Shown here piece by piece: positions 3,775 through 61,682 of a stretch of DNA of 64,000 nucleotides. The stretch is from Polyangiales bacterium (GTDB taxonomy: Bacteria; Myxococcota_A; Polyangia; Polyangiales; Polyangiaceae): the NCBI GenBank assembly GCA_038231275.1, contig JBBRLQ010000020.1:81685-145684 (forward strand). The letters are read 5' to 3'. Below the pieces are notes generated by a model. The model did not search any database. It was not told the DNA's origin and saw only the letters and a list, made by a program, of their open reading frames with translations. Within the stretch, counting starts at the first letter, position 1. Each line of letters starts with the position of its first letter. The position numbers were made by a program, and so were the translations under genes.

Positions 3775-4656
3775 TCAGGCCGCGCGCTTCTCGGGCATCG
3801 GCGCACGCGCGAGGTGAACGTCCATCTGCGGGAACGCGATCACGATCCTCTTCTCGCGGAACGCGCGCAGGATGCTCTCGCGAAGCATCGAGCAGTGTCG
3901 TCGATGGCCCCACGGATCGTGCATCCAGACCGAGACCTCGTAGACGAGCGCGGAGTCGGCGAAGGCGTTCAAGAGCACCAGCGGCGCGTACTCGAGATCG
4001 CCCCCTTTGTGCGTCTTCGCGACCTCTTCGAGGGTCGCGCGGACGAGGGCGGGATCCGAGTCGTAGGCGACGCCGACCGAGACGGCGACGCGGATGAGCG
4101 AGTCGTGCAGCGTGAGGTTTTTGATTGGCTGCTGCACGAGCACGCCGTTGGGGACGAGGATGTCCTCCTCGAAGAGCGTGCGTACTCGGGTCGCCCGGAT
4201 GCCGAGGTTCATCACGCGGCAATACTGGCCGTCGATCTCGATGATGTCGTCGATCTTGATCGACTGCTCGACGAGCAAAATGATGCCCGACACGAAGTTC
4301 ACGGCGACGCCCTGGAGCGCGAGGCCGATGCCCACGGCGAAGACGGCGGTGGCGGCGATGACGGCGCGAAGATCGATGCCGGCGGTCTCGAGGGCGACGA
4401 TGACGGCGACGACCATGAGGACGTAGCCGATGAGGCGCTCGATCGAGCGCATGCGACGCCCCTCGGCGATCCCGCGTCGTACGAGCGCGCGGTGCATGAC
4501 GTACCGGAGGACGCGCGACGCGCCGAACGCGCAGGCGAGGATGAGTCCGATCGCCAGGAGCGTCGCGGGCGTGACCGGACGACCACCCAGCTCGAAGAGC
4601 CTGAACCCAAGGACTTCCCACACCATGCCCTTCACGATCGGGATCGTCGCACCCAT
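3775..4656 (-). CDS. Small-conductance mechanosensitive channel (MscS family)
   Basis: Three TM segments, GIGLALQGVAVNFVSGIILL, IGIRAT-like LGIRAT, VPNG, VGVAYDSD, IAFPQMDV. Confidence 0.9.
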   Translation of the reverse strand: MGATIPIVKGMVWEVLGFRLFELGGRPVTPATLLAIGLILACAFGASRVLRYVMHRALVRRGIAEGRRMRSIERLIGYVLMVVAVIVALETAGIDLRAVIAATAVFAVGIGLALQGVAVNFVSGIILLVEQSIKIDDIIEIDGQYCRVMNLGIRATRVRTLFEEDILVPNGVLVQQPIKNLTLHDSLIRVAVSVGVAYDSDPALVRATLEEVAKTHKGGDLEYAPLVLLNAFADSALVYEVSVWMHDPWGHRRHCSMLRESILRAFREKRIVIAFPQMDVHLARAPMPEKRAA

Positions 4657-4740
4657 GGGCGGCGCGGCTCAAATTCCTGGAGATCCGACGCCCACGCACG
4701 CCCCTCGCTTGGGGCCGCTGGGCACGATATAAACGCGCAC

Positions 4741-5688
4741 ATGGCGCGCAGGCCCGTAGCGATCATCGGTGGAGGCTCATGGGGGCTGGCGCTCGCGGCT
4801 GCGGCGTCGCGCACGGGGGAGACGATGCTCCACTCGCGCCGGGCGCTCAACGGCAGCCTCCCCAAGGGCGTGACGCAGGCCCGGGATTTTCGGGAGATCG
4901 GCAAGGAGGCGCGCACCATCCTGCTCGCCGTGCCGTCCGAGATCGCGCGCGTCGTGCTCCGCGAGCTCGGCGATCACCTCGACGGGCGTCACTTCGTCGT
5001 CCATGGCGTCCGCGGCCTCGCCGGCAACTCCATGACGCGAATCAGCGAGGTCGTCCGCGAAGAGACCCCGGTTCGCCGCGTCGGCGCGGTCGGCGGCCCT
5101 GCGCTCGCGGAGGATCTGCTCGCCGGACGGCCGAGCGTGATGGTCTGCGGCTCGCATTTCCCCGAGGTGAGCACGGCGCTCCGCGAGGCGCTGGGCTGCA
5201 ACACGCTGCGCCTCTACACGACCGACGATCTCGTCGGGCTCGAGTGGGCGAGCGCGCTCGTGGGCTGCCTCGCGATCGGCGTCGGCTACGCGCAGGCGCT
5301 GGGCCTGAGCCCGGGGCTCGTCGCCGCGTACATCTCGCGATCGGTCACCGAGGCGTCGAAGATCGCGGCCGCGGCAGGGGGCGACGAGCGAACCCTCCTC
5401 GGGCTCGCCGGCTACGGCGACTTGCTCGCGTGCGCGGGGCAGACCGAGCGCCCCGAGGTCCTCGTCGGCCGTGCGCTCGCGCAGGGCACCCCGCTCGTCG
5501 AGGCGATGCGCGGGATCAAGACGCGGATCGAGGCCGTCGACCTCATCCCGCGCGTCGCGGCGTTCGCGGAGTCGAGCAAGGTCAGCTGCCCGATCTTCCA
5601 TTCGCTGCGCGACGGCGTGCTCGCCGCGAAGGCCACCGAGGACATCGTCCAGACGCTGATGACCGCGCCGATCGAAGATCGCGGCTGA
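4741..5688 (+). CDS. gpsA: NAD(P)H-dependent glycerol-3-phosphate dehydrogenase-like protein (catalytic motifs degenerate)
   Basis: IIGGGSWGLALA Rossmann motif, LAVPS, GGPALA, DLVGLE, GLAGYGDLL; ATG at 4741 within ORF 3745..5688. Confidence 0.75.
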   Translation: MARRPVAIIGGGSWGLALAAAASRTGETMLHSRRALNGSLPKGVTQARDFREIGKEARTILLAVPSEIARVVLRELGDHLDGRHFVVHGVRGLAGNSMTRISEVVREETPVRRVGAVGGPALAEDLLAGRPSVMVCGSHFPEVSTALREALGCNTLRLYTTDDLVGLEWASALVGCLAIGVGYAQALGLSPGLVAAYISRSVTEASKIAAAAGGDERTLLGLAGYGDLLACAGQTERPEVLVGRALAQGTPLVEAMRGIKTRIEAVDLIPRVAAFAESSKVSCPIFHSLRDGVLAAKATEDIVQTLMTAPIEDRG

Positions 5689-5711: not shown

Positions 5712-8700
5712 ATGCGTCCCGTCACGCTCCGCACGCGCATCCTCGTCCGCGAGCTCGCCAGCGGCGAGGTGCTGGCCATCCCGGTCTGCGATCCCGCGCA
5801 CGCCAGCTTCGGCGGCGAAGAGGACGCGCTGCTCGAGCAGTCGATGTTCCTCTCCGAGCACCTCGCGCGCGCGAGGCCGGAGACCGTCGCGCGCTTCGCC
5901 ATACCGGAGGGCACACGTTTGCATATTACACGCGTCCTCGTCCCCCGCGAGGAGCTGCCGCACGCCGTCGCGGTCACCCAGCCGATCGAAATCCCGAGTG
6001 TCGTCATCCCGTCCACCGCGCGCGCGAAGAGCGACGCATGGGTGGTGATCGTGCCGCTCGACTACACGTTCTTCGTCCCCGCGGGCGAGGACCTGGACGA
6101 GGCCGTGAAGAGCGAGGTGCTCCGCCTCGTCGCCGCGGAGGAGGCGGGCGCGACGCACTACCTCGGCCTCTTGCCGGGCGTTCACGATCGCCTCGAGCCG
6201 CTCGACGTGAGGATCGATCGCTCGTCCGACGGACCGGCGGGGCGCGCGGCGTCCCATCGCAAGGCGATCGCGCAGCGCGAGAAGCGCAAGCACGCGGTGC
6301 TCGTCCTCGAGTCGGTCGCGACGCCGCTGCATCAAGACGAGGCGCGCGCGCGGCCGATGCTCGGACGCGACGCCGACGCCAAGCTCCTCGCGGGCATTCT
6401 GGGCGGCGACGAGCGGCAGAGCGTGGTCCTGGTCGGCGAGCCGAAGGTCGGCAAGACGGCGCTCTTTCGCGCGTGGCTCGCCGCCGAAGTGGAGGCCGGA
6501 CGTCCGCGCCTCGTGTACGCGACGAGCGGCGCGCAGCTCATCGCGGGAATGAGCGGCCTCGGGCAGTGGCAAGAGCGCGTTCGCCGCGTGATGGACGCCG
6601 CGCACACGCTCGACGCCATCCTCTACTTCGACGATCTCGCCGATCTCTTCAGCGAGCGGGCGCACGGGATCGATCTCGGCGGCGCGATGAAGCCGTGGTT
6701 GGAGGAGGGCAGAGTGCGCCTCGTCGGCGAGCTCGCCAAAGATCGCGCGGAGGTGGTCGAGAGCCGCCACGTCGGCTTCTTCTCGTGCACCAGCCGCATT
6801 CGCCTCGAGCCGATGTCTCCGGTGCAGGCCCTCGTGGCCCTCCGCGCGCACGCCGCGGCCGACGGCAAGCACGAGCCGCACGCCGTTCAGGTCGCCGACG
6901 ACGCGCTCGTCGCGATTTGCGATCTCGCCGAGCGGTACCTCCCCTACGAAGCGTTCCCCGGAAAGGCGGCGCGCTTGTACGACGATCTGCGCGCGAGCCA
7001 AGAGCTCGGGAGGAGCCGCGCAGAGGGTGCACCGGCGCCCCGACTCTCGGCCGGCGACGTGTTCGATTGGTTCAGCGTGCGCACCGGCGTGCCGCCGTTC
7101 CTCCTCCGCGACGACGCGGCGCTCCGGCAGGAGTGGATCGCCGCGCATTTCGATCGACGCTTGATCGGGCAAGATGACGCGAAGGCGCGCGTGCGAGGCA
7201 CCATCGCCGTCGTGAAGGCGGGGCTCCAGCCCGCGGGAAAGCCGCTCGCGACGTTCCTCTTCGTGGGCCCCACCGGCGTCGGCAAGACGGAGCTCGCGCG
7301 CGCGACGGCGGAGCTGCTCTTCGGCCACGCCGATCGCCTGGTTCGCTTCGACATGAGCGAGTACACCGACCCGTGGGCGGCCGAGCGCCTGATCCGCGGC
7401 ACCGAGCGCGGCGACGGTCTCCTCACGCGAAAAGTGCGCGAGCAGCCGTTCTCGGTCGTGCTCCTCGACGAGATCGAGAAGGCCCACCCCGCGGTGTTCG
7501 ATCTGCTCCTCCAGGTGTGCGGCGAAGGGCGCCTCACCGACGGGCGCGGAAAGACCGCGTACTTTCACAACACGATCCTCATCATGACGAGCAACCTCGG
7601 CGCCGCGCACCGCAGAGGCGCGGTCGGCTTCGAGGGGACCGGCGCGTCCGACGACGGGTACTACGTGAAGGAGGTCGAGAAGACGTTCCGGCCGGAGATG
7701 GTCAACCGGATTGATCGCATCGTCGCGTTCCGGACCCTCACGCGCGACGAGATCCGCGCGGTCACGCGCCTCACGGTGGAGCGCGTGCGCACGCGGCGCG
7801 GGCTCGCCCAGGGCGCTTTGGAGCTCGTCGTCTCCGACGCCGCCCTCGCGCACCTCGCGGAGCGCGGCTTCAGCGACGCGTACGGCGCGCGGGCGCTGCG
7901 GAGGCACGTCGAGGATCACCTCACCACCCCGGTCGCGCGCCTCCTCACGAGCCTGACCCACGGCGGCGGCCGCGACATCGTCGACGTGCGAACGGCCGAC
8001 GAGCCCGAGTACGAAGGCACCTCGAACCTCGTCACGCGCGCGTCGTCGGGCGGCCTCGTCTTCTCGCTCCTCGGCAAGCCGCGCGGCCTCACGGCGCCGA
8101 TGACCAGCGTCTGGGCCCTCTCCGAATTGCGGCGCGAGCTCCAGAAGTACATGCGCCTCGACCGCGTGACCGAGCTCAAGGCGCAGCTCGAGTTCGTGAT
8201 CGCGCAGCTCAGCTACGGGGAGCCGGGGAAGAAGAAGAAGGGGTCGGAGCTCGCGCGCGCCGGCTCGGAGGTCGGCCGCCTCTCCTCCGAGCACCACAAG
8301 CTCCACGAGGTGTGGTCGGCGCTCGAGGGCGCGTACACGGATCTCCAGAGCGCCGAGGAGCTGGGCTTCGCGGCCTTCTTCGCGGGCGAGCGCTTCGACG
8401 CGCTCCTCGAGGAGGCGCACGCGATCAAGGCGCGCTTCCGCGCGGGGCTCCTCCAGGCGCTCACGTGCCGCGATCCGAAGCGCTTCGGCGTGACGCTGCT
8501 CCTCCAGGAGCTCGACGACGGCCGCGCGTTCGACGCCTGGCTCGCGCCGCTCCTCGACGCGTGCGACGCGCGAGGCTGGGAGCTGGAGCTTCACGTCGAC
8601 GCGAACACCAAGGAGGATCGCGCGGGGACCAAGTGGCCCGAAGCGCGCCGCTGGGGTCCGCCGCGAACCGCCAAGGCGTTCAAGGACGTGCTCGGGGATC

Positions 8701-9245
8701 GGGGTCGAACCTTCAAGAACGTGCTCCTCCGGGCGCGCGGGCCGAGCGTCGGCATCCTCCTGGGACTGGAGGGCGGCCTCCATCGCTTCCACGACGTGCA
8801 CCCCGACGTCCGCCCCTGCCACATGCTCGCGATGCGCATCGCCTTTCGCGCGACGCTCAAGGACGACGACTGGCTCTCGCCGACGATCGCGCCGCCTCTA
8901 CCCGCCGCCGCCGATCACGCGCGCCGACAACAACCCACGCGCGAGGTGCTCGCCAACGAAGGGGTCGTCCACGTCTTCGCCAAGCGCGCGGTCCTCAAGA
9001 TCCCGCTCGCCGACTACTGGTCCCGCTTCGACGAGATCGCGCTCGAGCACCTGCTTCTCTTCGAGACGCGCGACGATCTCGATCGCGACGTGACCCTCGC
9101 CGCCATCTTCGAAGACGAGTGGGACGACGTCACGGAGCTCGTTCGCCAAGGGCACCTCATCGAGGCGAACAAGCGGTACCGCGAACGCGCGGGAGTCGGG
9201 CTCAAGGAGGCGAAGGACTACGTCGACTCGCTGAGGGGCAGCTGA
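5712..9245 (+). CDS. ClpA/ClpB-like double AAA+ ATPase 1 with C-terminal release-factor-like and L7/L12-like regions (~1177 aa)
   Basis: D1 Walker A GEPKVGKT; D2 GPTGVGKTE, DMSEY, LLDEIEKAHP, GRLTDG, IMTSNLG, YGARALRR; ATG at 5712. Confidence 0.85.
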   Translation: MRPVTLRTRILVRELASGEVLAIPVCDPAHASFGGEEDALLEQSMFLSEHLARARPETVARFAIPEGTRLHITRVLVPREELPHAVAVTQPIEIPSVVIPSTARAKSDAWVVIVPLDYTFFVPAGEDLDEAVKSEVLRLVAAEEAGATHYLGLLPGVHDRLEPLDVRIDRSSDGPAGRAASHRKAIAQREKRKHAVLVLESVATPLHQDEARARPMLGRDADAKLLAGILGGDERQSVVLVGEPKVGKTALFRAWLAAEVEAGRPRLVYATSGAQLIAGMSGLGQWQERVRRVMDAAHTLDAILYFDDLADLFSERAHGIDLGGAMKPWLEEGRVRLVGELAKDRAEVVESRHVGFFSCTSRIRLEPMSPVQALVALRAHAAADGKHEPHAVQVADDALVAICDLAERYLPYEAFPGKAARLYDDLRASQELGRSRAEGAPAPRLSAGDVFDWFSVRTGVPPFLLRDDAALRQEWIAAHFDRRLIGQDDAKARVRGTIAVVKAGLQPAGKPLATFLFVGPTGVGKTELARATAELLFGHADRLVRFDMSEYTDPWAAERLIRGTERGDGLLTRKVREQPFSVVLLDEIEKAHPAVFDLLLQVCGEGRLTDGRGKTAYFHNTILIMTSNLGAAHRRGAVGFEGTGASDDGYYVKEVEKTFRPEMVNRIDRIVAFRTLTRDEIRAVTRLTVERVRTRRGLAQGALELVVSDAALAHLAERGFSDAYGARALRRHVEDHLTTPVARLLTSLTHGGGRDIVDVRTADEPEYEGTSNLVTRASSGGLVFSLLGKPRGLTAPMTSVWALSELRRELQKYMRLDRVTELKAQLEFVIAQLSYGEPGKKKKGSELARAGSEVGRLSSEHHKLHEVWSALEGAYTDLQSAEELGFAAFFAGERFDALLEEAHAIKARFRAGLLQALTCRDPKRFGVTLLLQELDDGRAFDAWLAPLLDACDARGWELELHVDANTKEDRAGTKWPEARRWGPPRTAKAFKDVLGDRGRTFKNVLLRARGPSVGILLGLEGGLHRFHDVHPDVRPCHMLAMRIAFRATLKDDDWLSPTIAPPLPAAADHARRQQPTREVLANEGVVHVFAKRAVLKIPLADYWSRFDEIALEHLLLFETRDDLDRDVTLAAIFEDEWDDVTELVRQGHLIEANKRYRERAGVGLKEAKDYVDSLRGS

Positions 9246-9247
9246 CG

Positions 9248-12200
9248 ATGCACGTCACCGTCCCGGTCTATCAGAAGCGCGCAGGCCAGAACCTGGAGTG
9301 GATCACGCTCGGCCTCGGCACGCACACCAAGACGCGGGCCGGCACCAACGCGCAGAAAATCCAGGAGAAGCTCACCGACGATCTGCGCCGCGCCGCCGAG
9401 GGGGCTCCACCGCGCGATCTCCCGTCGTTCCAGCTCAAACGCGGGACTCGCCTCGAGCGCGTGCGCGTCGAGCTCGTGTTGAAGAGCGAGGGACAGAAGC
9501 GGAAGCCCTCCGGTCTCGTCCCGGTGATCGTCGAGCCGCGCGAGGCCGGCGACGGCGCGCGCTTCGTCATCGCGTACCACCCGGCGCGTCAAAGCGAGTG
9601 GTTCCCCGTCCGCGAGGGACAGACGCTGGCCGAGCAAGCCAAGGCGTTCTTCCAAAAGGCGTGGGCGGGCCTCGACGACGAGGCGCTCGGCCTCCTCTGG
9701 TCGAACGGCCGCGATCTGCTGAAAATTCTAGCGTTCTCCTTTCGCCCGCGATCGCTGCTCGACGAGCTGCCCGACAAGAAGAAAGGCATCTGGGACGATC
9801 TCGACGCGGATCCGGCGCGGCAGAAGCAGAAGAAGGCGCCGGCCGGCATGCAGGTCTTGCCGCGGCTCGGCGTCGATCTCACCGCGCGCGCCGAGACTCG
9901 CCGCGACCAGGCCAGGCCGCGCCCGCCCTACCGCGAGCAGCTCCAGAGCCTCCTCTCTGCGGCGAAGAAGCAGTCGACGCTGCTGGTCGGCGCGCACGGG
10001 GTCGGGAAATCGACGCTGCTCGATCAATGGATCTTGGATCTGATGGAGGCGGAGGACTTCCCGTCGCACCGGAACCTCGACCGCGTGACCCACGTGTGGT
10101 CGCTGGGCGGCAAGCAGCTCATCGCCGGGATGTCGTATGTCGGCGATTGGGAGAAGCGCTGCGTCGATTTGCTCGAGGACGTACGCGGTCGCAAGGTGGT
10201 CCTCATCGTCCACGATTTGCACCTTTTCGGGCAGATCGGCCGCGCGCGGGACAGCGATCGCGCGCTCGCCGATTTCTTCCGCGGGCCGCTCGCGCGCGGG
10301 GAGATCGTCCTCGCCGGCGAGTGCACGGCCGAGCAGCTGCGGCGCCTCGAGGAGGACGCGCCGGCCTTCGCGGCGCTTTTCGCGCGCGTCTTCGTCCGCG
10401 AGGCGACGAGCGAGGAGACCTTCCGCATGATGGTCGGCACTGCGCGGCGGCTCGAGATGGAGAGGAACGTCACGTTCGACGCGTGGGCCTTCCAGACGAT
10501 CCTCGAGCTCGGCGCCGCGCTCTTCCCGTCGCACGCGCTGCCGGGAAAGGCCATCGACATGCTCGAGCGCCTCGCCCACGAGCACGACGCGGAAGAAGGC
10601 GACGATGCGACCGACATCGACGGCGATCTGGTCACCGATCACTTGACCGAGCGCACCGGCCTCCCGTACCGCCTGATCTCTCCGGGCGGCACGCTGAAGC
10701 AGAGCGACGTCGAGGCAGCGCTCGCGCTGAAGGTCATGGGGCAGCCCGAGGCGGTCGCGGCCGCCGCCGATGTCGTGGTGCGCGTGCGCGCAGGGCTCAC
10801 GGATCCGAAGCGTCCTTACGCCGTTCATCTGTTCACGGGGCCGACGGGCACCGGCAAGACCGAGCTGGCGAAGGCGCTCGCCGAGTACCTGTACGGCGGG
10901 CCGTCGCGCCTCCTCCGGCTCGACATGAGCGAGTTCGGCTCCGCAGACGCCGTCGCGCGTCTCATCGGCGACGCGTGGACGCCGGACGGTCTCCTCACGA
11001 GCGCGATCAAAGAGCAGCCGTTCAGCGTAGTGCTCCTCGACGAGATCGAGAAGGCGCATCCCGCGGTGCACAACCTCCTCCTCCAGCTCTTCGACGAGGG
11101 CCGCCTCACCGACGCGGCGGGCAACGCGGTGAGCTTCCTCCAGTCGGTCGTGGTGATGACGTCGAACCTCGGCGCACGCACGCGGCCGCCGATGGGGTTC
11201 ACGGAGGCGCCCGATCAAGTGATGCTCGAGATCGCGCGCGCGGTGCGCGAGTTCTTCCCGCCGGAGCTGTGGAACCGCATCGATCGCGTCGTGCCGTTCC
11301 GGCCGCTCTCGCGCGAGGTCGCGGTCGACGTGGCGCAGAAGGAGCTCGCGAAGCTCCTCGGCCGACGCGGACTCGCCGATCGCAACATCTTCGTCCACGC
11401 CAACCGCGCCGTGGTCGAGCGGGTCGCCGCCGACGCGTTCCGCCAAGAGGACGGGGCGCGCTCGCTGAAGCGCTTCCTCGAGGATCGCATCGGGTCGCGC
11501 CTCAGCGAAGAGATCGCGAAGGCCCCCAACGCGGCGCTCCAGGTCGTTCGCCTCTTCGACGGTGAGGACGGCTTCGTCCTCGAGCACGAGCCGCTCGTGG
11601 AGGCCGAGCCGTGCGGAGATCGTTTCGCGCTCGAGCCGCTCCTCGAGCTGCCCTTGGCGGACCTCCAGGCGCGCCTCCCGGAGCTGGTGACGAGCCTCGA
11701 CGAGATCGAGAAGAGCCCGCGTTTCCTCGCGATCGAGCAGCAAATCATACGTCTCCTCGCCGCCCGGCGCGAGGGACGGGTCGACGCCGGCGACACGATC
11801 TTCGATCTGGATTGGACGCGCGCGAGCCTGAAGGCGTTCCGCGACAAGATCGAGCGCCTGAGCGTCGCGTCGCGCGATCTCGGATACGAAGAGCTCGAGG
11901 CGCGGCAGTTCGGGACGCAAGAGGTCGAGGTCGGCGGCGCGCTCGTGCGCATGCGCGTCCTCTCACGCCTCGGCGAGCGAGACTCGGCGCGCGCCATCAC
12001 GCGGCGTGAGCTCCTCGAGTGCTTCGCGCAGGTGCAGTTCCTCGCGCGGGCGCTGGGGAAGGTGCATGACCCCACGCAGCACGCCGTGAAGGTGGAGGTG
12101 CTGCCGATCGGGAGCGCGGCGTCGCTCGCGAAGTGGCTCGCGGCAGCCTACGCGGGAAAGTGGGGGCAGCTCGCCGGCTACGCGACGCTCGCGCGCGGGA

Positions 12201-12658
12201 CGGCGCTCGAGGGAACCGACAAGCGCCACCTCGCCGTCGCGCTCGAGGCGAAGCCGGACCTCATCGTGCTGCGCATCCAGGGCATGTGCGTGCGCGACTT
12301 CGCGGAGCTCGAGACCGGCACCCACGTCTGGCAAGGCGCGACGACGGCCCCGGAGCTGGTGCGCGTGCGCGTGCTCACCGACGACGGTCGCCCGCTCGCC
12401 GATCACGTCGAGGAGCACCGGCGGCGGCGCGACGCGTTCGAGAAGGCCGCGATCGCCCCGGGGCGCGAGGCCGAGAACCCGTCGCGCCTCCTCCCGATCG
12501 CACGCACGATCCGCTTCGATCCGCCGCGCGCCGGCCTGGCCCCGCTCGCGCTCGAGGATTTCGCGATGGGGCACGGCGGGACGTTCCACGTGAAGACGAT
12601 CGCCGAGGCGCTCGGCACGCTGTGGCTCCTTCGCATGACGCGGGAGGCGCGCGCATGA
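9248..12658 (+). CDS. ClpA/ClpB-like double AAA+ ATPase 2 with C-terminal release-factor-like region (~1136 aa)
   Basis: D1 GAHGVGKS; D2 GPTGTGKTE, DMSEF, LLDEIEKAHP, GRLTD, MTSNLG, GARSLKR; ATG 2 nt after previous stop. Confidence 0.85.
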   Translation: MHVTVPVYQKRAGQNLEWITLGLGTHTKTRAGTNAQKIQEKLTDDLRRAAEGAPPRDLPSFQLKRGTRLERVRVELVLKSEGQKRKPSGLVPVIVEPREAGDGARFVIAYHPARQSEWFPVREGQTLAEQAKAFFQKAWAGLDDEALGLLWSNGRDLLKILAFSFRPRSLLDELPDKKKGIWDDLDADPARQKQKKAPAGMQVLPRLGVDLTARAETRRDQARPRPPYREQLQSLLSAAKKQSTLLVGAHGVGKSTLLDQWILDLMEAEDFPSHRNLDRVTHVWSLGGKQLIAGMSYVGDWEKRCVDLLEDVRGRKVVLIVHDLHLFGQIGRARDSDRALADFFRGPLARGEIVLAGECTAEQLRRLEEDAPAFAALFARVFVREATSEETFRMMVGTARRLEMERNVTFDAWAFQTILELGAALFPSHALPGKAIDMLERLAHEHDAEEGDDATDIDGDLVTDHLTERTGLPYRLISPGGTLKQSDVEAALALKVMGQPEAVAAAADVVVRVRAGLTDPKRPYAVHLFTGPTGTGKTELAKALAEYLYGGPSRLLRLDMSEFGSADAVARLIGDAWTPDGLLTSAIKEQPFSVVLLDEIEKAHPAVHNLLLQLFDEGRLTDAAGNAVSFLQSVVVMTSNLGARTRPPMGFTEAPDQVMLEIARAVREFFPPELWNRIDRVVPFRPLSREVAVDVAQKELAKLLGRRGLADRNIFVHANRAVVERVAADAFRQEDGARSLKRFLEDRIGSRLSEEIAKAPNAALQVVRLFDGEDGFVLEHEPLVEAEPCGDRFALEPLLELPLADLQARLPELVTSLDEIEKSPRFLAIEQQIIRLLAARREGRVDAGDTIFDLDWTRASLKAFRDKIERLSVASRDLGYEELEARQFGTQEVEVGGALVRMRVLSRLGERDSARAITRRELLECFAQVQFLARALGKVHDPTQHAVKVEVLPIGSAASLAKWLAAAYAGKWGQLAGYATLARGTALEGTDKRHLAVALEAKPDLIVLRIQGMCVRDFAELETGTHVWQGATTAPELVRVRVLTDDGRPLADHVEEHRRRRDAFEKAAIAPGREAENPSRLLPIARTIRFDPPRAGLAPLALEDFAMGHGGTFHVKTIAEALGTLWLLRMTREARA

Positions 12659-14934
12659 GCAAGAAGAGCCTTCGCGTGTATTTCGTCGACCACGGCGTCG
12701 AGAAGAAGTCCGGCATGCTCCTCCGCGTGTGGGACAACTTCTTCGACCGCCCGCCGCCCGCCGCGTTCGGCGCGAGCGAAGCCGACATCCTGGAGCAGCT
12801 GGAGCAGCAGCTCGCCGAGCTCGAGGCAGAGACCGCGGGCGAGCTCGAGCGCTACCTGTGGGACGAGACCTTCGCGACGCGCGAGGTGCGCATCGTCGTG
12901 CACCCGCGCTCCTCGATCAAGAAGCGCGCAGTCATCGGGAAGAAGGAGATCCCGATGACGCTGACGTATGCATACTGCAAGCTCCCGGGCGGAGGCTTCC
13001 GCGTGATGGTGCCGCGCTTCGGCGGGTGGTTCATCCTCGAGGATCTCGCGCTGGCCCCCGAGGTGCTGCGCCACGCGGTGTCGAGCTGGCTGCTCGGCGA
13101 GAACCCGCGCTGGGTCTACGACTTCCGTCACGAAGGCGAGGAGGTCGTTCGCGAGTGGGCGCCGGCGATCTTGAAGCGGACGCCACCGCGCGCGTCCACC
13201 GAGGCCGCGGGCGACGCGATGCCGACGACCGCGCAGGTCGCCGAAGAGCTCGTCGAGCGCGCGGCGAAGGGGAAGCTGCCGATGCCGGTCGGCGCGTCCC
13301 CGGAGCTCGCGCGCGCGACCAGCGATCTCGCGAAGCTGCCGCCGACGTCGATCCTCCTCGTGGGCCCCAGCGGCGTCGGCAAGACGGCGTGGGTGCGCCG
13401 CGCCGCGCATCTGTTCGTGACCTGGCGACGGCAGCCGAACAAGAAGGCGCCGCGCATCTGGGCGACGAGCGCGGACCGGATCATCGCGGGGATGGTCTAC
13501 CTGGGCCAGTGGCAGGAGCGGTGCATCGCGCTGGTGCGCGAGCTGTCGCACGAGGGGGACTACCTCTACGTCGATCGCCTGGCGCCCCTCCTGCGGCCGC
13601 AGCCCGACGGCTCCAGCATCGCGGACTTCCTCGAGCCCGCGCTGGCGGCGGGCGAGCTCAGCCTCATTGCAGAGTGCACGGAATCGGAGCTCGAACGCAT
13701 GCTCCGCGAGCGCCCGACGCTGGTGGGTCGCTTCTCGCTCGTGCGCATCGCCGAACCGTCGCAAGAGGCGGTGCTGGAGCTCGTGGGCCTGTACGCGCAG
13801 AAGCGCGGCGGGACGGCGCTGCACGCGTCCAGCCTGAAGCGAATGGTTCGTCACCTCGCGTCGTTTCAGCGGTCGACCGCGTTTCCGGGAAAGGCGATTC
13901 GCTTCGTCGACTGGCTCGCGAAGGAAGGGGCGAACAAGACGCTCTATCCGCGCGACGTCTCCGAGGCCTTCTCGCGCTACTCGGGGCTCCCGCTGGAGCT
14001 GATCAGCGACGACTACCCTGCCAGCGCCGAGGCCCTCGCCGGAGCGCTCAAGGCGCGCGTCGTCGGGCAGGACGAGGCGTGCGACGCGTGCGGACGAATG
14101 CTCGCGCGCTTCAAGGCGATGATGACCGATCCCGAGCGACCGACCGGGGCGCTGCTCTTCGTCGGCCCCACCGGCGTCGGAAAGACCGAGCTCGCCAAGC
14201 AGCTCGCGCGCACGACGTTCGGCGACGCGAAGCGGATGATCCGCCTCGACATGAGCGAGTACATGCTGCGCGGCGCGGCGAATCGGCTGCTCGACACCTC
14301 CCCGGGCGTGCGGAGCCTCGCCGCGCAGGTGCACGAGGAGCCGCTCTCGCTCGTGCTGCTGGACGAGATCGAGAAGGCGCACCCCGAGGTGTTCGATCTT
14401 CTCCTCGGCGTGCTCGGCGAGGGGCGCATGACGGACTCGAGCGGGCGCCTCGTCGACTTTCGCGGGACGATCGTGATCATGACCTCGAACCTCGGCGTGA
14501 CCGATCGCATGCCGGTCGGCTTCGGGGACGCGCTGCCCGGAGATTTCCTGCGCCACGTCCGCGCGCATTTTCGGCCGGAGCTGTGGAACCGCATCGACCA
14601 CGTCTTGCCGTTCCGGCACCTCGCGAAGGAGGACGTCGCGCGCATCGTGGATCTCGAGATCGCGGCGCTCGGCGCGCGGACGGGGCTCGTGCGGCGCGCG
14701 GTGCGGCTCGAGGTGAGCGTCGCCGCGCGGGCATGGCTCGCCGAGCGCGGGTACCACCCGACCCGCGGCGCCCGTCCGCTCAAGCGGCTCATCGAGGAGC
14801 GCGTGATGACGCCGCTGGCCGCGCGCCTCGCCGCCGAGACGGCGCTGAAGGACGGCGTCGCGCGGGTCGTCTGCGAGGGCGAGGGCGAGAGCGGGGCGGC
14901 GCGCGGCCCCCTGATCACCTTGACGTTGGGCTGA
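12655..14934 (+). CDS. ClpA/ClpB-like double AAA+ ATPase 3 (~759 aa)
   Basis: D1 GPSGVGKT; D2 GPTGVGKTE, DMSEY, LLDEIEKAHP, MTSNLG, GARPLKR; ATGA overlap with previous stop. Confidence 0.85.
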   Translation: MSKKSLRVYFVDHGVEKKSGMLLRVWDNFFDRPPPAAFGASEADILEQLEQQLAELEAETAGELERYLWDETFATREVRIVVHPRSSIKKRAVIGKKEIPMTLTYAYCKLPGGGFRVMVPRFGGWFILEDLALAPEVLRHAVSSWLLGENPRWVYDFRHEGEEVVREWAPAILKRTPPRASTEAAGDAMPTTAQVAEELVERAAKGKLPMPVGASPELARATSDLAKLPPTSILLVGPSGVGKTAWVRRAAHLFVTWRRQPNKKAPRIWATSADRIIAGMVYLGQWQERCIALVRELSHEGDYLYVDRLAPLLRPQPDGSSIADFLEPALAAGELSLIAECTESELERMLRERPTLVGRFSLVRIAEPSQEAVLELVGLYAQKRGGTALHASSLKRMVRHLASFQRSTAFPGKAIRFVDWLAKEGANKTLYPRDVSEAFSRYSGLPLELISDDYPASAEALAGALKARVVGQDEACDACGRMLARFKAMMTDPERPTGALLFVGPTGVGKTELAKQLARTTFGDAKRMIRLDMSEYMLRGAANRLLDTSPGVRSLAAQVHEEPLSLVLLDEIEKAHPEVFDLLLGVLGEGRMTDSSGRLVDFRGTIVIMTSNLGVTDRMPVGFGDALPGDFLRHVRAHFRPELWNRIDHVLPFRHLAKEDVARIVDLEIAALGARTGLVRRAVRLEVSVAARAWLAERGYHPTRGARPLKRLIEERVMTPLAARLAAETALKDGVARVVCEGEGESGAARGPLITLTLG

Positions 14935-17900
14935 TGGATCCCCTCGACGACGCGCCCGACGGGCATTGGCTCGGATCTCTGGAACGGCACGATTTGCGGC
15001 GATTGCTGGGTGCGCGATCGCTCGCCATCGCGCTCGCGAGCCACCTCCGGTACGCGTCCGCGCCGCGGCGCGAAGGGGCGGACGTCGTCGCGGCGGTGAC
15101 CGACGACGGCGCGGCGACCGACGAGACGTTCCAGGTCGCCCTGCGCATCGACGCCGACGGCGCGCTGGTCGGCAAATGCTCGCGGTGCGCGGCGCTGTTC
15201 GGCCCATGCGTGCACGTCGGCGTCGTCGCGGTGGACCTCGCGTGCTCGACGCCGATGCGCGAGGCGCTGCTCGCACGCGAAGGGACGAGCACGATCGCGG
15301 ACGGAGCGCCGGCGCGGCGTCGAGGGCTGCACCTCGAGCTCCAGTTCGACGGCGCGCTCGGCGCGTGGGTGGCCCCGGCGGCGCAGCCGATGCCCCTCGA
15401 GCTCGCGGCGGGACCTGCGACGGTCGCCGAGACCGGCCCCGGACGCGCATACGGCGATCGACGCGACGCGCCGGGAGGTCCAACGCTCTCGATCCTCGTC
15501 CGCCCGCGCGGCGAGAAGCGGCTCCTCTCGGGCCGCGAGATCCAAGAGCTCTGCGCGACGGTCGGCAAGCTCCTCCCTCGCGATCGGCGCGTCCTCGAGC
15601 ACGCGCGGGATCGCGGCAACAAGAAGGCGGTCTTCGCCGCCGGCGTCGAGGCGTCGTTGGCGCTCGAGGCGATGCGCCTGCACGGCGCGGTGATGACGAC
15701 CGGGGGAAAGACGGTGCTTCGCTTCCGCGCGATGCCGGTGAGGCCGGTGCTGCGCCTCGGCCGCGACGCGCCCGATCTTCCACACGGCTTCGACGCCCTC
15801 TCGTCGTTCTGGGTCACCGCCGACGGCGGCGCGTCGTTTCCGTTCGCGGAGACAACGCTGTTTCCAGGGCCGTTCCCGTACTTGTGGACGCGCGCCGGCG
15901 CGATTCACCCCGTGCCACCCGACGTCGATCTGGACTTCGCGCGCCAGCTCGCGCGCGCGCCGATCCTGTTCGTGCCGCCCGGCCGCCTCGCCGACGCGGG
16001 CACGCAAATCCTCCGAGCGACGCGCGGGCGCGGGGTGTCGGTGCCATCGCACGAGGTCTTCGGGCTCCCGCCGCTCGAGCCGCCGCGTGTCGTCCTTCGC
16101 CTCGAAGGAGAGCCGCTCGCGGTGGTGGGGACGCTCACCGCGCACTACCGCGGGCGCGCGATCTCGCTCGTCCCTTCGGATCCGTCGGCGCCCGAAGATC
16201 GACGGGACCTCGACGCCGAGGCGCGCGCCGTCGCCCTGGTGGCCCACGTCGCCGACGCCGACGCGAGCGAGGAGCCGGTCTCCGCGCGCGGCGAGCAGGC
16301 GATCGCGTTCTGGCGCGATGGGCTCCCGCACATCCGATCGGCCTACGATCCGCGGATCGAGGTGGAGCTCACGCCGCGCCTCGCGGGCATCCGTGTCGGG
16401 GCGCCGCTGACCGGGCGCGTTCACGTGGTGCTCGAGGGTGACTGGCTCAAGACGCGCCTCGATTTTGCGGCCGGCGATTTGCCGGTGGAGCTCGATCGCG
16501 TTCGCACCGCGCTCGCGAACAAGCAGCGGTGGGTCGAGCTCGACGACGGGACGCTCAGCCGCATCGAGTCGCAGATCGAGTCTCTCGTCGACGAAGCCGG
16601 CGCCGTCATGGGCAAGGCAGCCGAGGCGCTCCTCCCCTTCCACCAGCTCGGGCGGCTCGAGCGATGGATCGACGCGAACGACGGGAGGATCGACGCGGCG
16701 ACCGCAGCGCTGCGAAGGCGCCTGCGCGCGCTCTCGGTGGCGCCGGAGCCGCAGCTTCCACGCGGCCTCGAGGGAACCCTGCGGCCGTACCAACTTCACG
16801 GCCTGGCGTGGCTTCAGTTCCTCGAAGAGCTCGGCGCCGGCGGGATCCTGGCCGACGACATGGGGCTCGGAAAGACGATCACGACCCTCGCGTTCCTCCT
16901 TCGCCAAAAAGAGGCGCGCGGCGCGGCGCCGGCCCTCGTCGTGTGCCCCACGTCGGTGGCGACGAATTGGCTTCGCGAGGCCGCGCGCTTCACGCCGTCG
17001 CTCTCGCTCCTCCTCTTCCATGGCCCCTCGCGCGACGCGACCACCCTCGCAAAGGTCGACGTCGCGGTGACGACGTACGCGATCCTCCGCGCGGACATCG
17101 ACGCGCTCGCGAAGATCCCGTTTCGCACGGTGGTCCTGGACGAGGCGCAGAACATCAAGAACCCCGAGAGCGCCACGACGCGGGCGGCGGCGAAGCTCGC
17201 AGCGAAGACGCGCCTGGCGTTGTCGGGCACGCCGATGGAGAACCGCCTGCGCGAGCTCTGGTCGCTCGCGTCGTTCGCGAACCCTGGAATCCTCGGCGCG
17301 CCGCGCGCGTTCGAGACGCGCTTCGAGCGACCGCTCACCACCGATCGCGCGGCGCCGGTGGCCGCCGAGCTCCGGGCGATCGTGCGTCCGTTCCTGCTGC
17401 GTCGAACGAAGGCCGACGTCCTCACCGAGCTTCCGCCCAAGACCGAGATCGATCGCGTCGTCACGCTCACCACAGCGGACAAGCGCATGTACGACGCCCT
17501 CGCGCACACGCTCCGCGATGGCCTCACCGAGGACGTGCGCGCGCGCGGGCTGCGGGCGGCGTCTTTGTCCGTCTTCACCGCGCTCACGCGCTTGCGGCAA
17601 ATGGCGTGCGATCCGCGGCTCGTGGACCCGAGCCTCGTCGCGGTGGCGAGCGCCAAGCGCGAGGCGTTCCTCGATCTCGTGCGCGAGCTCGTCGCGGAGG
17701 GGCGGCGCGCGCTGATCTTCTCGCAGTTCGTGCAGCTCCTCACGCTGTGGCGCCGCGATCTCGACGAAGAGCGGATCCCGTACGCGTACCTCGACGGCGC
17801 GACGACCAAGCGCGACGAGGTGGTCCGCCGCTTCCAGGAAGGGACCGCGCCGCTCTTCCTCATCTCGCTCAAGGCGGGCGGCGTCGGGCTGAACCTCACC

Positions 17901-18419
17901 GCGGCCGACACGGTCATCCACTGCGATCCGTGGTGGAACCCCGCCGTCGAAGACCAGGCGACCGATCGCGCATACCGCATCGGGCAGGACAAGCCGGTCA
18001 CCGTGGTCCGCCTCGTCGCGCGCGGCACGATCGAAGAGAAGATCCTGGCGCTGAAGGCCAAGAAGCGCGACCTCGTCGGCTCCTTCATCGGCGACGACGG
18101 AGGCGCCTTGGCCGGCATCACAGAGGACGATCTGCGCGCGCTCCTCGGCGACGCGGAGCTCGCCGACGACGACGGCACCGGCGCGCCGGAGGACAAGACC
18201 GACGCCCTCGCGACGATGACCGAGGTGCTCGACGAGGAGTACTACGCGCTCGTGAAGGAGGCGCGGAGGTGGCTCCTCGAGGTCGGGCGCTTCGAGAGCG
18301 CGCTCGCCGAGAAGCTCGACCTTCCCGAGTCCTTCGCCACCCGCCTGGCGCAAGGGCTCCCGTTTCCATGCTCCCGCGGCCTCGGCGATCGCCTCCGGGC
18401 CCGCCTTCGCGTCGCGTGA
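14934..18419 (+). CDS. SNF2-family helicase/ATPase with N-terminal SWIM-like Zn finger (~1161 aa)
   Basis: CSRC...CVH; LRPYQ, LADDMGLGKT, LDEAQNIKN, LSGTPMEN, LKAGGVGLNLT, DPWWNP, QATDRAYRIGQ; TGATG overlap. Confidence 0.9.
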   Translation: MDPLDDAPDGHWLGSLERHDLRRLLGARSLAIALASHLRYASAPRREGADVVAAVTDDGAATDETFQVALRIDADGALVGKCSRCAALFGPCVHVGVVAVDLACSTPMREALLAREGTSTIADGAPARRRGLHLELQFDGALGAWVAPAAQPMPLELAAGPATVAETGPGRAYGDRRDAPGGPTLSILVRPRGEKRLLSGREIQELCATVGKLLPRDRRVLEHARDRGNKKAVFAAGVEASLALEAMRLHGAVMTTGGKTVLRFRAMPVRPVLRLGRDAPDLPHGFDALSSFWVTADGGASFPFAETTLFPGPFPYLWTRAGAIHPVPPDVDLDFARQLARAPILFVPPGRLADAGTQILRATRGRGVSVPSHEVFGLPPLEPPRVVLRLEGEPLAVVGTLTAHYRGRAISLVPSDPSAPEDRRDLDAEARAVALVAHVADADASEEPVSARGEQAIAFWRDGLPHIRSAYDPRIEVELTPRLAGIRVGAPLTGRVHVVLEGDWLKTRLDFAAGDLPVELDRVRTALANKQRWVELDDGTLSRIESQIESLVDEAGAVMGKAAEALLPFHQLGRLERWIDANDGRIDAATAALRRRLRALSVAPEPQLPRGLEGTLRPYQLHGLAWLQFLEELGAGGILADDMGLGKTITTLAFLLRQKEARGAAPALVVCPTSVATNWLREAARFTPSLSLLLFHGPSRDATTLAKVDVAVTTYAILRADIDALAKIPFRTVVLDEAQNIKNPESATTRAAAKLAAKTRLALSGTPMENRLRELWSLASFANPGILGAPRAFETRFERPLTTDRAAPVAAELRAIVRPFLLRRTKADVLTELPPKTEIDRVVTLTTADKRMYDALAHTLRDGLTEDVRARGLRAASLSVFTALTRLRQMACDPRLVDPSLVAVASAKREAFLDLVRELVAEGRRALIFSQFVQLLTLWRRDLDEERIPYAYLDGATTKRDEVVRRFQEGTAPLFLISLKAGGVGLNLTAADTVIHCDPWWNPAVEDQATDRAYRIGQDKPVTVVRLVARGTIEEKILALKAKKRDLVGSFIGDDGGALAGITEDDLRALLGDAELADDDGTGAPEDKTDALATMTEVLDEEYYALVKEARRWLLEVGRFESALAEKLDLPESFATRLAQGLPFPCSRGLGDRLRARLRVA

Positions 18420-61259: not shown

Positions 61260-61682
61260 ATGCTCGATCCGCTCGTCGTCACCGCCAACGTCACCATCCC
61301 GGCGCGCGATCTGTCGTGGCTCGCCGTGCGCGCGTCGGGGCCGGGAGGGCAGAACGTTAACAAGGTGTCGACGAAGGTCGCGCTCACGTTCGATCTCGCG
61401 GGGACGGCCGCGCTCGAGCCGGCGACGAAGGCGCGCTTGGCGGAGGCGTTTCCGTCGTACGTGGACGGGCGCGGGCAGCTCACGGTGACGAGCCAGGCGA
61501 CGCGCGAGCAGCCGAGGAACCTCGAAGACGCGCGAAGCAAGCTGCGCGAGATGATCGCGCGCGCGCTCGTCGTGCCGAAGAAGCGCAAAAAGACTCGCCC
61601 CACGAAAGGCTCGCAGCGCCGCAGGCTCGAGGCGAAGCATCACCAGGGCGACAAGAAGCGCGATCGACGAACCGTCGAGTAG
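61260..61682 (+). CDS. arfB: Alternative ribosome rescue factor B (peptidyl-tRNA hydrolase)
   Basis: RASGPGGQNVNKVSTKV, QPRN, basic tail KKRKKTRPTKGSQRRRLEAK. Confidence 0.95.
   Translation: MLDPLVVTANVTIPARDLSWLAVRASGPGGQNVNKVSTKVALTFDLAGTAALEPATKARLAEAFPSYVDGRGQLTVTSQATREQPRNLEDARSKLREMIARALVVPKKRKKTRPTKGSQRRRLEAKHHQGDKKRDRRTVE

Follow-up and report, generated by a model that had tools for sequence, protein, structure and literature searches.

A three-gene Clp ATPase operon of Polyangiales with predicted release factor 2-derived arms on two of its subunits

We analyzed a 64,000-nucleotide stretch of a Polyangiales genome (assembly GCA_038231275.1, contig JBBRLQ010000020.1; hereafter the window), in which three tandem genes encode double-AAA+ ATPases of the Clp type. 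Coordinates refer to the window and, unless marked otherwise, to its forward strand. ATPase 1 (5712..9245, 1177 amino acids (aa)), the middle gene ATPase 2 (9248..12658, 1136 aa) and ATPase 3 (12655..14934, 759 aa) are tightly packed: the stop codon of ATPase 1 lies 2 nt before the start of ATPase 2, whose own stop overlaps the start of ATPase 3 (ATGA). ATPase 2 consists of a HicB-like N-terminal region, a degenerate first AAA+ module (D1), an intact second module (D2) and a C-terminal arm that we trace below to release factor 2 (RF2). ATPase 1 has the same layout. ATPase 3 has no arm and, as an earlier note on this DNA had stated, stops right after D2, ending 55 aa past the D2 sensor-2 motif.

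That note had described the last ~340 aa of the 1136-aa ATPase 2 open reading frame (ORF) as resembling a release factor (RF) that lacks GGQ. This tail is read from 11642-12658 and contains all of the quoted motif strings, comprising HAVKVEVLPIG (12080-12112), LAKWLAAAY (12125-12151), AGKWG (12152-12166), IVLRIQGMCVRDFAELETGTHVW (12263-12331), VRVRV (12359-12373), IARTIRFD (12497-12520) and LEDF (12551-12562); GGQ is found nowhere in the ATPase 2 protein. A motif alone is weak evidence, since among 20,000 shuffles 4.8% contain ExGxH and 0.34% contain G-x9-ExGxH, and we consider the tail signal real because of its conservation across the family and its fold.

The AlphaFold2 model of ATPase 2 residues 760-1136 has a predicted local distance difference test score (pLDDT) of 92.9 and a predicted template modeling score of 0.89. 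When this model was searched with Foldseek, every row listed above rank 50 was RF1, RF2 or mtRF1 (best E 1.4e-5), and a wide search independent of Foldseek returned four RF chains (Z 11.9-13.6) ahead of a helical bundle (Z 8.5). Escherichia coli RF2 (1gqe) aligns end to end with the model (Z 13.8, root mean square deviation (rmsd) 4.9, 262 residues), and PrfH is a weaker match (Z 7.5). The arm (11651..12652, aa 802-1135, aligned to E. coli RF2 residues 6-364) is predicted to contain both the domain 1 bundle and the domain 2/4 α/β superdomain of RFs, the latter fitting RF at an rmsd of about 3 over about 140 residues. The modeled domain 1 equivalent is a helical bundle (11654..12052, aa 803-935) into which a β-hairpin absent from RF1 and RF2 is inserted (11909..11962, aa 888-905); its R901-x-R903 motif is conserved in the ATPase 2 tail alignment (R901 in 95% of 84 rows, R903 in 91% of 81). 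In the domain 2 equivalent (12083..12379, aa 946-1044), ExGxH is kept, the following Arg is lost and the stop-codon loop is shortened and lacks SPF or PxT. Both the model and motif spacing place a single helix and a linker at the site of the GGQ-bearing domain 3 (12380..12496, aa 1045-1083), followed by the domain 4 equivalent (12497..12634, aa 1084-1129), in which R1086 and D1104 are conserved. The model, domain 1 included, is closer to free crystalline RF2 (rmsd 4.9) than to ribosome-bound RF2 (rmsd about 10), a comparison in which the predicted domain orientation is unreliable.

A HMMER search with the tail matched 170 clusters (50% identity) at E <= 0.001, of which 150 are listed. Full-length relatives measure 1026-1240 aa and keep the tail whole at their end, and the closest named relatives are myxobacterial. 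The 103-row tail alignment combines the window tail, 5 close relatives and 97 listed HMMER clusters, short fragments being excluded. Its conserved positions, G1012 (96%), E1022 (90%), G1024 (100%), H1026 (94%), R1086 (100%) and D1104 (97%), are those that the earlier note had picked out; H945 is another conserved feature of the ATPase 2 arm that is missing from RFs. Among viral contigs, we found generic Clp cores only, and none of the 80 matches kept reached the tail.

Routine sequence comparisons fall short of this relationship. Pfam and NCBIfam gave no RF match for the tail, and neither the window tail nor any of 43 tail rows reached the Pfam cut-off for PCRF or RF-1. Searches of PDB sequences with the tail or its profile found no RF, and the full-length profile returned Clp chains. 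The tails of ATPases 1 and 2 match each other only at E 3.1 by pairwise BLAST. A hidden Markov model of the tail matched the genome's own RFs marginally, though in register, and hhalign against a three-sequence RF profile gave 1.9%, so that deeper profiles were required. As a lead, PCRF clusters ranked top in the ESM Atlas (score 0.90, 174 shared features; the 10 best named matches all agree). A 62-member cluster there joins ClpB_D2-small to PCRF, and the architecture is thus visible to automated annotation.

With deeper profiles, single-gene Clp-RF2 fusions bridge the tail and RF2. They are matched by the ATPase 2 tail (97.7%, E 1.4e-12; block-shuffled controls, <=55.7%) and in turn match RF2 (99.95%, E 5.9e-38). 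All five fusions examined, which come from related genomes, pass the Pfam PCRF cut-off, and the fusions are nearer prfB than prfA (E 3e-32 versus 2.5e-10). The distance from the ExGxH Glu to the IRxY Arg is a median of 65 residues in ATPase 2 (range 41-84, n=102) versus 129 in RF1 (n=28) and RF2 (n=16), and the roughly 64 residues missing from the ATPase 2 arm correspond to the GGQ domain. In six single-gene fusions, this spacing takes values of 47, 47, 71, 91, 96 and 122, so that domain 3 grades from a degenerate remnant without GGQ to complete absence. Three of the fusions (L142:8317-11913, L148:9135-11957 and L141:8444-11278) have a degenerate domain 3 without GGQ, as deletion intermediates; the one at L142 also has HEAT repeats in its N-terminal region. 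GGQ appears in 5 of 100 ATPase 2 tails; four of these occurrences fall outside the region, and the fifth lies in one row's linker. All 51 RF1 and RF2 sequences have Arg or Lys directly after ExGxH, as do 26 of 38 ATPase 1 arms and none of 100 ATPase 2 arms. The arms are net acidic, as are RFs. Because the profile chain runs through the single-gene fusions and the spacing is graded, we conclude from sequence and model that the ATPase 2 arm is a true derivative of RF2, rather than of RF1, with domain 3 deleted, and no convergent mimic.

The arm of ATPase 1 (8115..9068, aa 802-1119) keeps ExGxHR, and its model (pLDDT 91.5) aligns with the RF2 of 6szs (Z 13.1, rmsd 8.7, 273 residues aligned). The two tail models have an identical order of elements and the same top structural matches, so both arms are predicted to adopt the RF fold; a fold unrelated to RFs and to the ATPase 1 tail, which the earlier note had named as refuting its reading, is not what the models show. 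At profile level, the two tails match at 90.4% (E 1.4e-6, 215 columns), and ten block-shuffled controls gave <=4.5%. By these profile comparisons, the two tails are remote homologs descended from one ancestral Clp-RF2 fusion. They are therefore not two independent signals. The proposal that finding the same signal in two paralogs strengthens an RF-mimic reading thus holds for the shared predicted fold and the profile match, and it fails in counting as mimics what are derived homologs. ATPase 1 ends in a helical hairpin that weakly resembles the C-terminal domain of L7/L12 (9123..9236; PF00542 E 0.03-0.11 and PRK06771 E 1.5e-5, both below cut-off), and a similarly weak match is present in 11 of 36 ATPase 1 orthologs. 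Elsewhere, three third subunits (L135:5435-8728, L137:13525-16602 and L153:9173-12226) retain a shortened RF-type arm of 250-270 aa with ExGxHR; three arms are therefore likely to be ancestral.

The window ATPases have the two tandem AAA+ modules of the Clp clade, and we counted their motifs in 34 ATPase 1, 74 ATPase 2 and 40 ATPase 3 sequences, which are related and not independent (two ATPase 1 rows without a D2 anchor were dropped). The Walker B DE of D1 is absent from all three sets (0/34, 0/74 and 0/40), and the D1 Arg pair (RR) occurs in 0, 0 and 1 sequences, respectively, so that D1 looks dead in all three ATPases. The D2 Walker A and B motifs, Arg finger and sensor 2 are intact in all or all but one row per set. 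None of the 148 rows has the GYVG D2 pore loop, which is shortened. An aromatic residue occurs in this shortened loop in 59 of 74 ATPase 2 sequences, among them that of the window (W577, in a loop at 10955..10999), and in none of the 34 ATPase 1 or 40 ATPase 3 sequences. A D1 pore Tyr is found in 39 ATPase 3 and 37 ATPase 2 sequences (plus 4 with Phe) and in no ATPase 1. The GF of an IGF-like loop, predicted to dock on ClpP, is present in 21/34, 65/74 and 39/40 sequences of ATPases 1, 2 and 3; in the window ATPase 2, it reads MGF (11192..11200). The differences between the subunits are thus fixed and complementary, a pattern that a mixed ring would be expected to show, and these subunit-specific states support the division of labor among subunits that had been suggested for the operon.

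Full-length matches to the tail profile occur in at least 17 of 401 genomes of the phylum, a lower bound given that four candidates were scored per genome; one match is split over two contigs. Of the 15 loci fetched, 13 show the ordered trio, with broken reading frames in L119 and L129. Another locus runs into the end of its contig, and the last contains only ATPase 2. The lone copy (L125:8702-12439) is an ATPase 2 ortholog with neither partner in the 20 kb fetched; a trio of the other subfamily lies elsewhere in the same genome (L131). A second myxobacterial subfamily shows an identical gene layout. A scan of GTDB with the D1 motif found at least 137 stretches, of which 80 were fetched, and revealed complete long-long-short trios at no fewer than 8 loci in Planctomycetota, Verrucomicrobiota, Acidobacteriota and a Selenomonadaceae bin; Myxococcus, Archangium and Enhygromyxa also have complete trios. 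An acidobacterial genome (a Thermoanaerobaculia bin, L188/L189) carries the myxobacterial subtype of the window, which suggests transfer. We built a D2 tree of 143 rows by a quick method with Shimodaira–Hasegawa-like approximate likelihood ratio support only, excluding duplicates and many incomplete loci and using six canonical Clps as outgroup. It places trios and single fusions together on one branch (support 100) and clusters the rows according to operon position, with 5 changes compared with 73.6 on average after shuffling. Neither position 2 nor position 3 forms a single branch, and support for position 1 is only 38.

The N-terminal regions of the three ATPases (5712-6299, 9248-9853 and 12655-13227) are homologous and gave no match to the Clp_N domain, which they replace. 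All three align (profile, 91-94%) to a Chloroflexaceae single-gene fusion (L168) that starts with a HicB/UPF0150 domain, and it is through this fusion that we call them HicB/UPF0150-like. Downstream, the start of a SNF2 helicase gene (14934-18419) overlaps the stop of ATPase 3 (TGATG); we rejected it as a trio member because it was matched in 0 of 118 related loci. Upstream lie genes for an MscS channel (3775-4656, reverse strand) and a glycerol-3-phosphate dehydrogenase (about 4714-5688). One unannotated cluster of flanking genes, MscS-like in appearance, is shared by the window and three further trio loci (L137, L140 and L220). Among ORFs of at least 120 aa in 96 loci, no flanking gene is conserved, and no effector or defense gene is a conserved neighbor in these loci. 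We found no Rfam or σ70 promoter match near the operon and saw no stand-alone GGQ partner adjoining the trio in 118 loci. An ArfB/YaeJ-like gene (61260-61679) lies 46 kb from the trio and encodes 139 aa with a Pfam RF-1 match over cut-off, GGQ and a basic C-terminal tail. The genome encodes ClpP and intact RF1 and RF2. Two RF1-type genes are present in the assembly (C130:678-1583, +, and C2:335537-336652, −); the former is cut by the end of its short contig and may be contamination. Two SmpB-like motif matches also occur in the genome.

A sister trio is likely to be present in Myxococcus xanthus. A transcriptome study (PMC6617876) reports that the MXAN_4823-4825 operon, encoding three Clp ATP-binding subunits, is upregulated under chloramphenicol, with log2 fold changes of 3.57/2.67/2.61 at 8 h and 1.47/2.17/1.92 in adapted cells. 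These proteins, of 1149, 1127 and 836 aa, are annotated only as ClpB or ClpA/B family in Table S1 of PMC11423568. The ORFs of the M. vastator trio are exactly 1149, 1127 and 836 aa, and an 885-aa Clp lies 4.8 kb beyond that trio, versus 884 aa for MXAN_4832. We therefore assign MXAN_4823-4825 to the same three-gene family, with the same gene order, on the basis of lengths and of gene order in M. vastator and not of the DK1622 sequence. It belongs to the sister subfamily, in which the position-2 arm is more eroded.

ATPase 2 combines features of two known families. Like RF2 (PrfB; PCRF PF03462 and RF-1 PF00472), its arm has the domain 1 helices and the domain 2/4 fold in the same order; unlike RF2, it lacks the GGQ domain 3, the SPF loop and the Arg after ExGxH, has an extra hairpin in domain 1 and is fused behind a double AAA+ motor. 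The window ATPases share two AAA+ modules, intact D2 motifs and an IGF-like loop with ClpA and ClpC, but they have a HicB-like region in place of Clp_N, a D1 without catalytic Glu and Arg fingers, no GYVG, three co-encoded paralogs and RF2 arms. Their scores of about 300 bits fall far short of the NCBIfam cut-offs. ATPase 2 is thus neither an RF1/RF2 member, for want of GGQ and the codon loop, nor a ClpA/ClpC proper, given its dead-looking D1 and lack of GYVG and Clp_N, yet it keeps the folds of both. PrfH and ArfB are likewise RF paralogs minus a domain. PrfH keeps the GGQ domain and drops others, the reverse of the ATPase 2 arm, and the ArfB-like protein of the window does the same.

Gene order, the motif states of the subunits and the deletion of domain 3 can be read from the sequence itself. 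We infer a heteromeric assembly, docking to ClpP and a ribosomal target, and we propose tentatively, with confidence a little short of even, that the three genes encode one heteromeric Clp ring that would dock on ClpP and be held on stalled ribosomes by its arms. In favor of this proposal stand the close packing and conserved order of the genes, the complementary motifs of the subunits, the RF fold predicted for the arms, the presence of ClpP and intact RF1 and RF2 in the genome and the chloramphenicol response of the sister trio. D1 would form the scaffold tier of this ring and D2 its motor tier. The chief attachment to the ribosome would be made by the ATPase 1 arm, which keeps ExGxHR and sometimes ends in the L7/L12-like hairpin; a second, remodeled arm and the sole aromatic D2 pore loop would come from ATPase 2; and the armless ATPase 3 would donate the D1 pore Tyr. 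Such a ring could remodel or split stalled ribosomes, or pass a stuck chain or a ribosomal factor to ClpP, and it would not hydrolyze peptidyl-tRNA. Pelota pairs with ABCE1 in a process that offers a working analogy. Dom34/Pelota is a catalytically inactive RF paralog that recycles stalled ribosomes, and ABCE1 is the ATPase that starts subunit splitting, according to PMC6514570. Those proteins of archaea and eukaryotes are separate and belong to the aeRF1 family and the ABC ATPases, whereas here RF2 is fused to a Clp AAA+ motor, with unrelated folds. By this analogy, which we regard as possible but rather doubtful, the trio might be a bacterial counterpart built from other parts, in which dead RF2 arms would recognize stalled ribosomes, ATP hydrolysis by D2 would split or strip them, and the stuck product would go to ClpP.

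Several observations weigh against a stalled-ribosome ring. The ATPase 2 tail matches RF1 and RF2 profiles directly with only 25% and 20%, and ATPase 2 arms lack the RF-invariant basic residue after ExGxH throughout (0/100). SPF or PxT is found in 0 of 100 ATPase 2 arms and in no arm of any kind, and ExGxH itself is kept in just 4 of 17 position-2 arms of the Myxococcus-type trio. Having lost more invariant RF residues than ATPase 1, ATPase 2 is therefore the weaker candidate for binding the A site. The absence of GYVG from every subunit makes ClpA-style threading doubtful, and, by analogy with ClpA, a tail placed behind D2 would sit on the face of the ring that meets ClpP, away from where substrates enter. 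ATPase 2 stands alone at L125, and no translation gene is a conserved neighbor of the trio in 96 loci. The chloramphenicol response concerns the sister subfamily, not the subtype of the window; chloramphenicol raised 625 and 297 genes in the two states, 101 of them in both, which makes the induction unspecific, and it is interpreted as general proteolysis in the original study (PMC6617876).

The arms might have been recruited off the ribosome as protein-binding or regulatory appendages that govern ring assembly, activity or adaptor choice, a role of the kind played by the middle domain of ClpB and ClpC. We consider this unlikely on balance but a serious alternative: the missing Arg residues and codon loop of ATPase 2, its conserved features foreign to RFs (the RxR hairpin and H945), the speed at which subunits and subfamilies have diverged and the absence of translation genes nearby all fit it, but two subunits retain the full domain 1 plus domain 2/4 layout across phyla, ATPase 1 arms often keep ExGxHR (26/38) and some ATPase 1 sequences carry an additional L7/L12-like hairpin (11/36), and the sister trio is induced by chloramphenicol (PMC6617876). 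It is improbable that the arms are baits of a conflict system, trapping phage proteins or toxins aimed at RFs and thereby switching on the ring and ClpP. Patchy spread of the window subtype (at least 17/401 genomes of the phylum) with copies in distant phyla, fast arm divergence and the HicB/UPF0150-like N-terminal region would suit such a system; however, conserved effector or defense neighbors are missing from the 96 loci, PADLOC matches are generic, cover part of the AAA domain only and never fall on the arms, and baits should resemble host RF2, from which the arms have drifted far.

A slightly slimmer chance attaches to the ATPase 2 arm binding specific RNAs instead of ribosomes and coupling RNA-protein complexes to an ATP-driven remodeler. 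Its model is chloroplast PrfB3, an RF2 derivative in a new job that is without SPF and GGQ and attaches to the petB 3' UTR (PMC5897788). PrfB3 is a stand-alone plant protein that stabilizes petB RNA and has no ATPase, and no shared origin beyond RF2 is apparent. The conserved RxR hairpin and a PrfB3 cluster among the ESM Atlas look-alikes (score 0.83, a lead) are in keeping with RNA binding, but the arms are net acidic, like RFs, and no structured RNA family (Rfam) lies near the operon. That the ATPase 2 arm is a jobless, decaying relic of the ancestral fusion seems very unlikely: the arm has mostly been lost from third subunits and position-2 arms are the most eroded, but full-length members of the 170 clusters keep the tail whole, invariant core residues coexist with subunit-specific conserved features, and the structure model is confident. 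An active RF or stop-codon reader is hardly conceivable despite the RF fold. With no GGQ domain and no stop-codon loop, the ATPase 2 arm cannot be a working RF; the sequence already contradicts that function, for which the genome has normal RF1 and RF2 and the ArfB-like gene.

We found no description of the fusion or of the trio's arms in the open full-text literature, the scope of our search. Burroughs and Aravind 2019 (PMC6514570) do not mention Clp, 'clp' having 0 matches there. The Clp-RF2 arm trio is a real, conserved and apparently undescribed variant. To our knowledge, each bacterial Clp/Hsp100 motor is a ring built from a single kind of subunit, and bacteria rescue their ribosomes with tmRNA, GGQ-bearing factors and a small number of splitting factors. 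If our reading is true, a three-subunit Clp with GGQ-less RF2 arms would couple protein degradation directly to translation in a way not described before, and the trio would represent a naturally occurring heteromeric Hsp100 whose subunits divide the work between them. Should the arms prove non-ribosomal, they would still be a clear case of an RF recruited as a protein module. The sister operon belongs to M. xanthus DK1622, a strain amenable to genetics. The Pelota-like reading, if true, would mean that myxobacteria, planctomycetes, verrucomicrobia and acidobacteria possess a pathway of ribosome quality control that has not been described.

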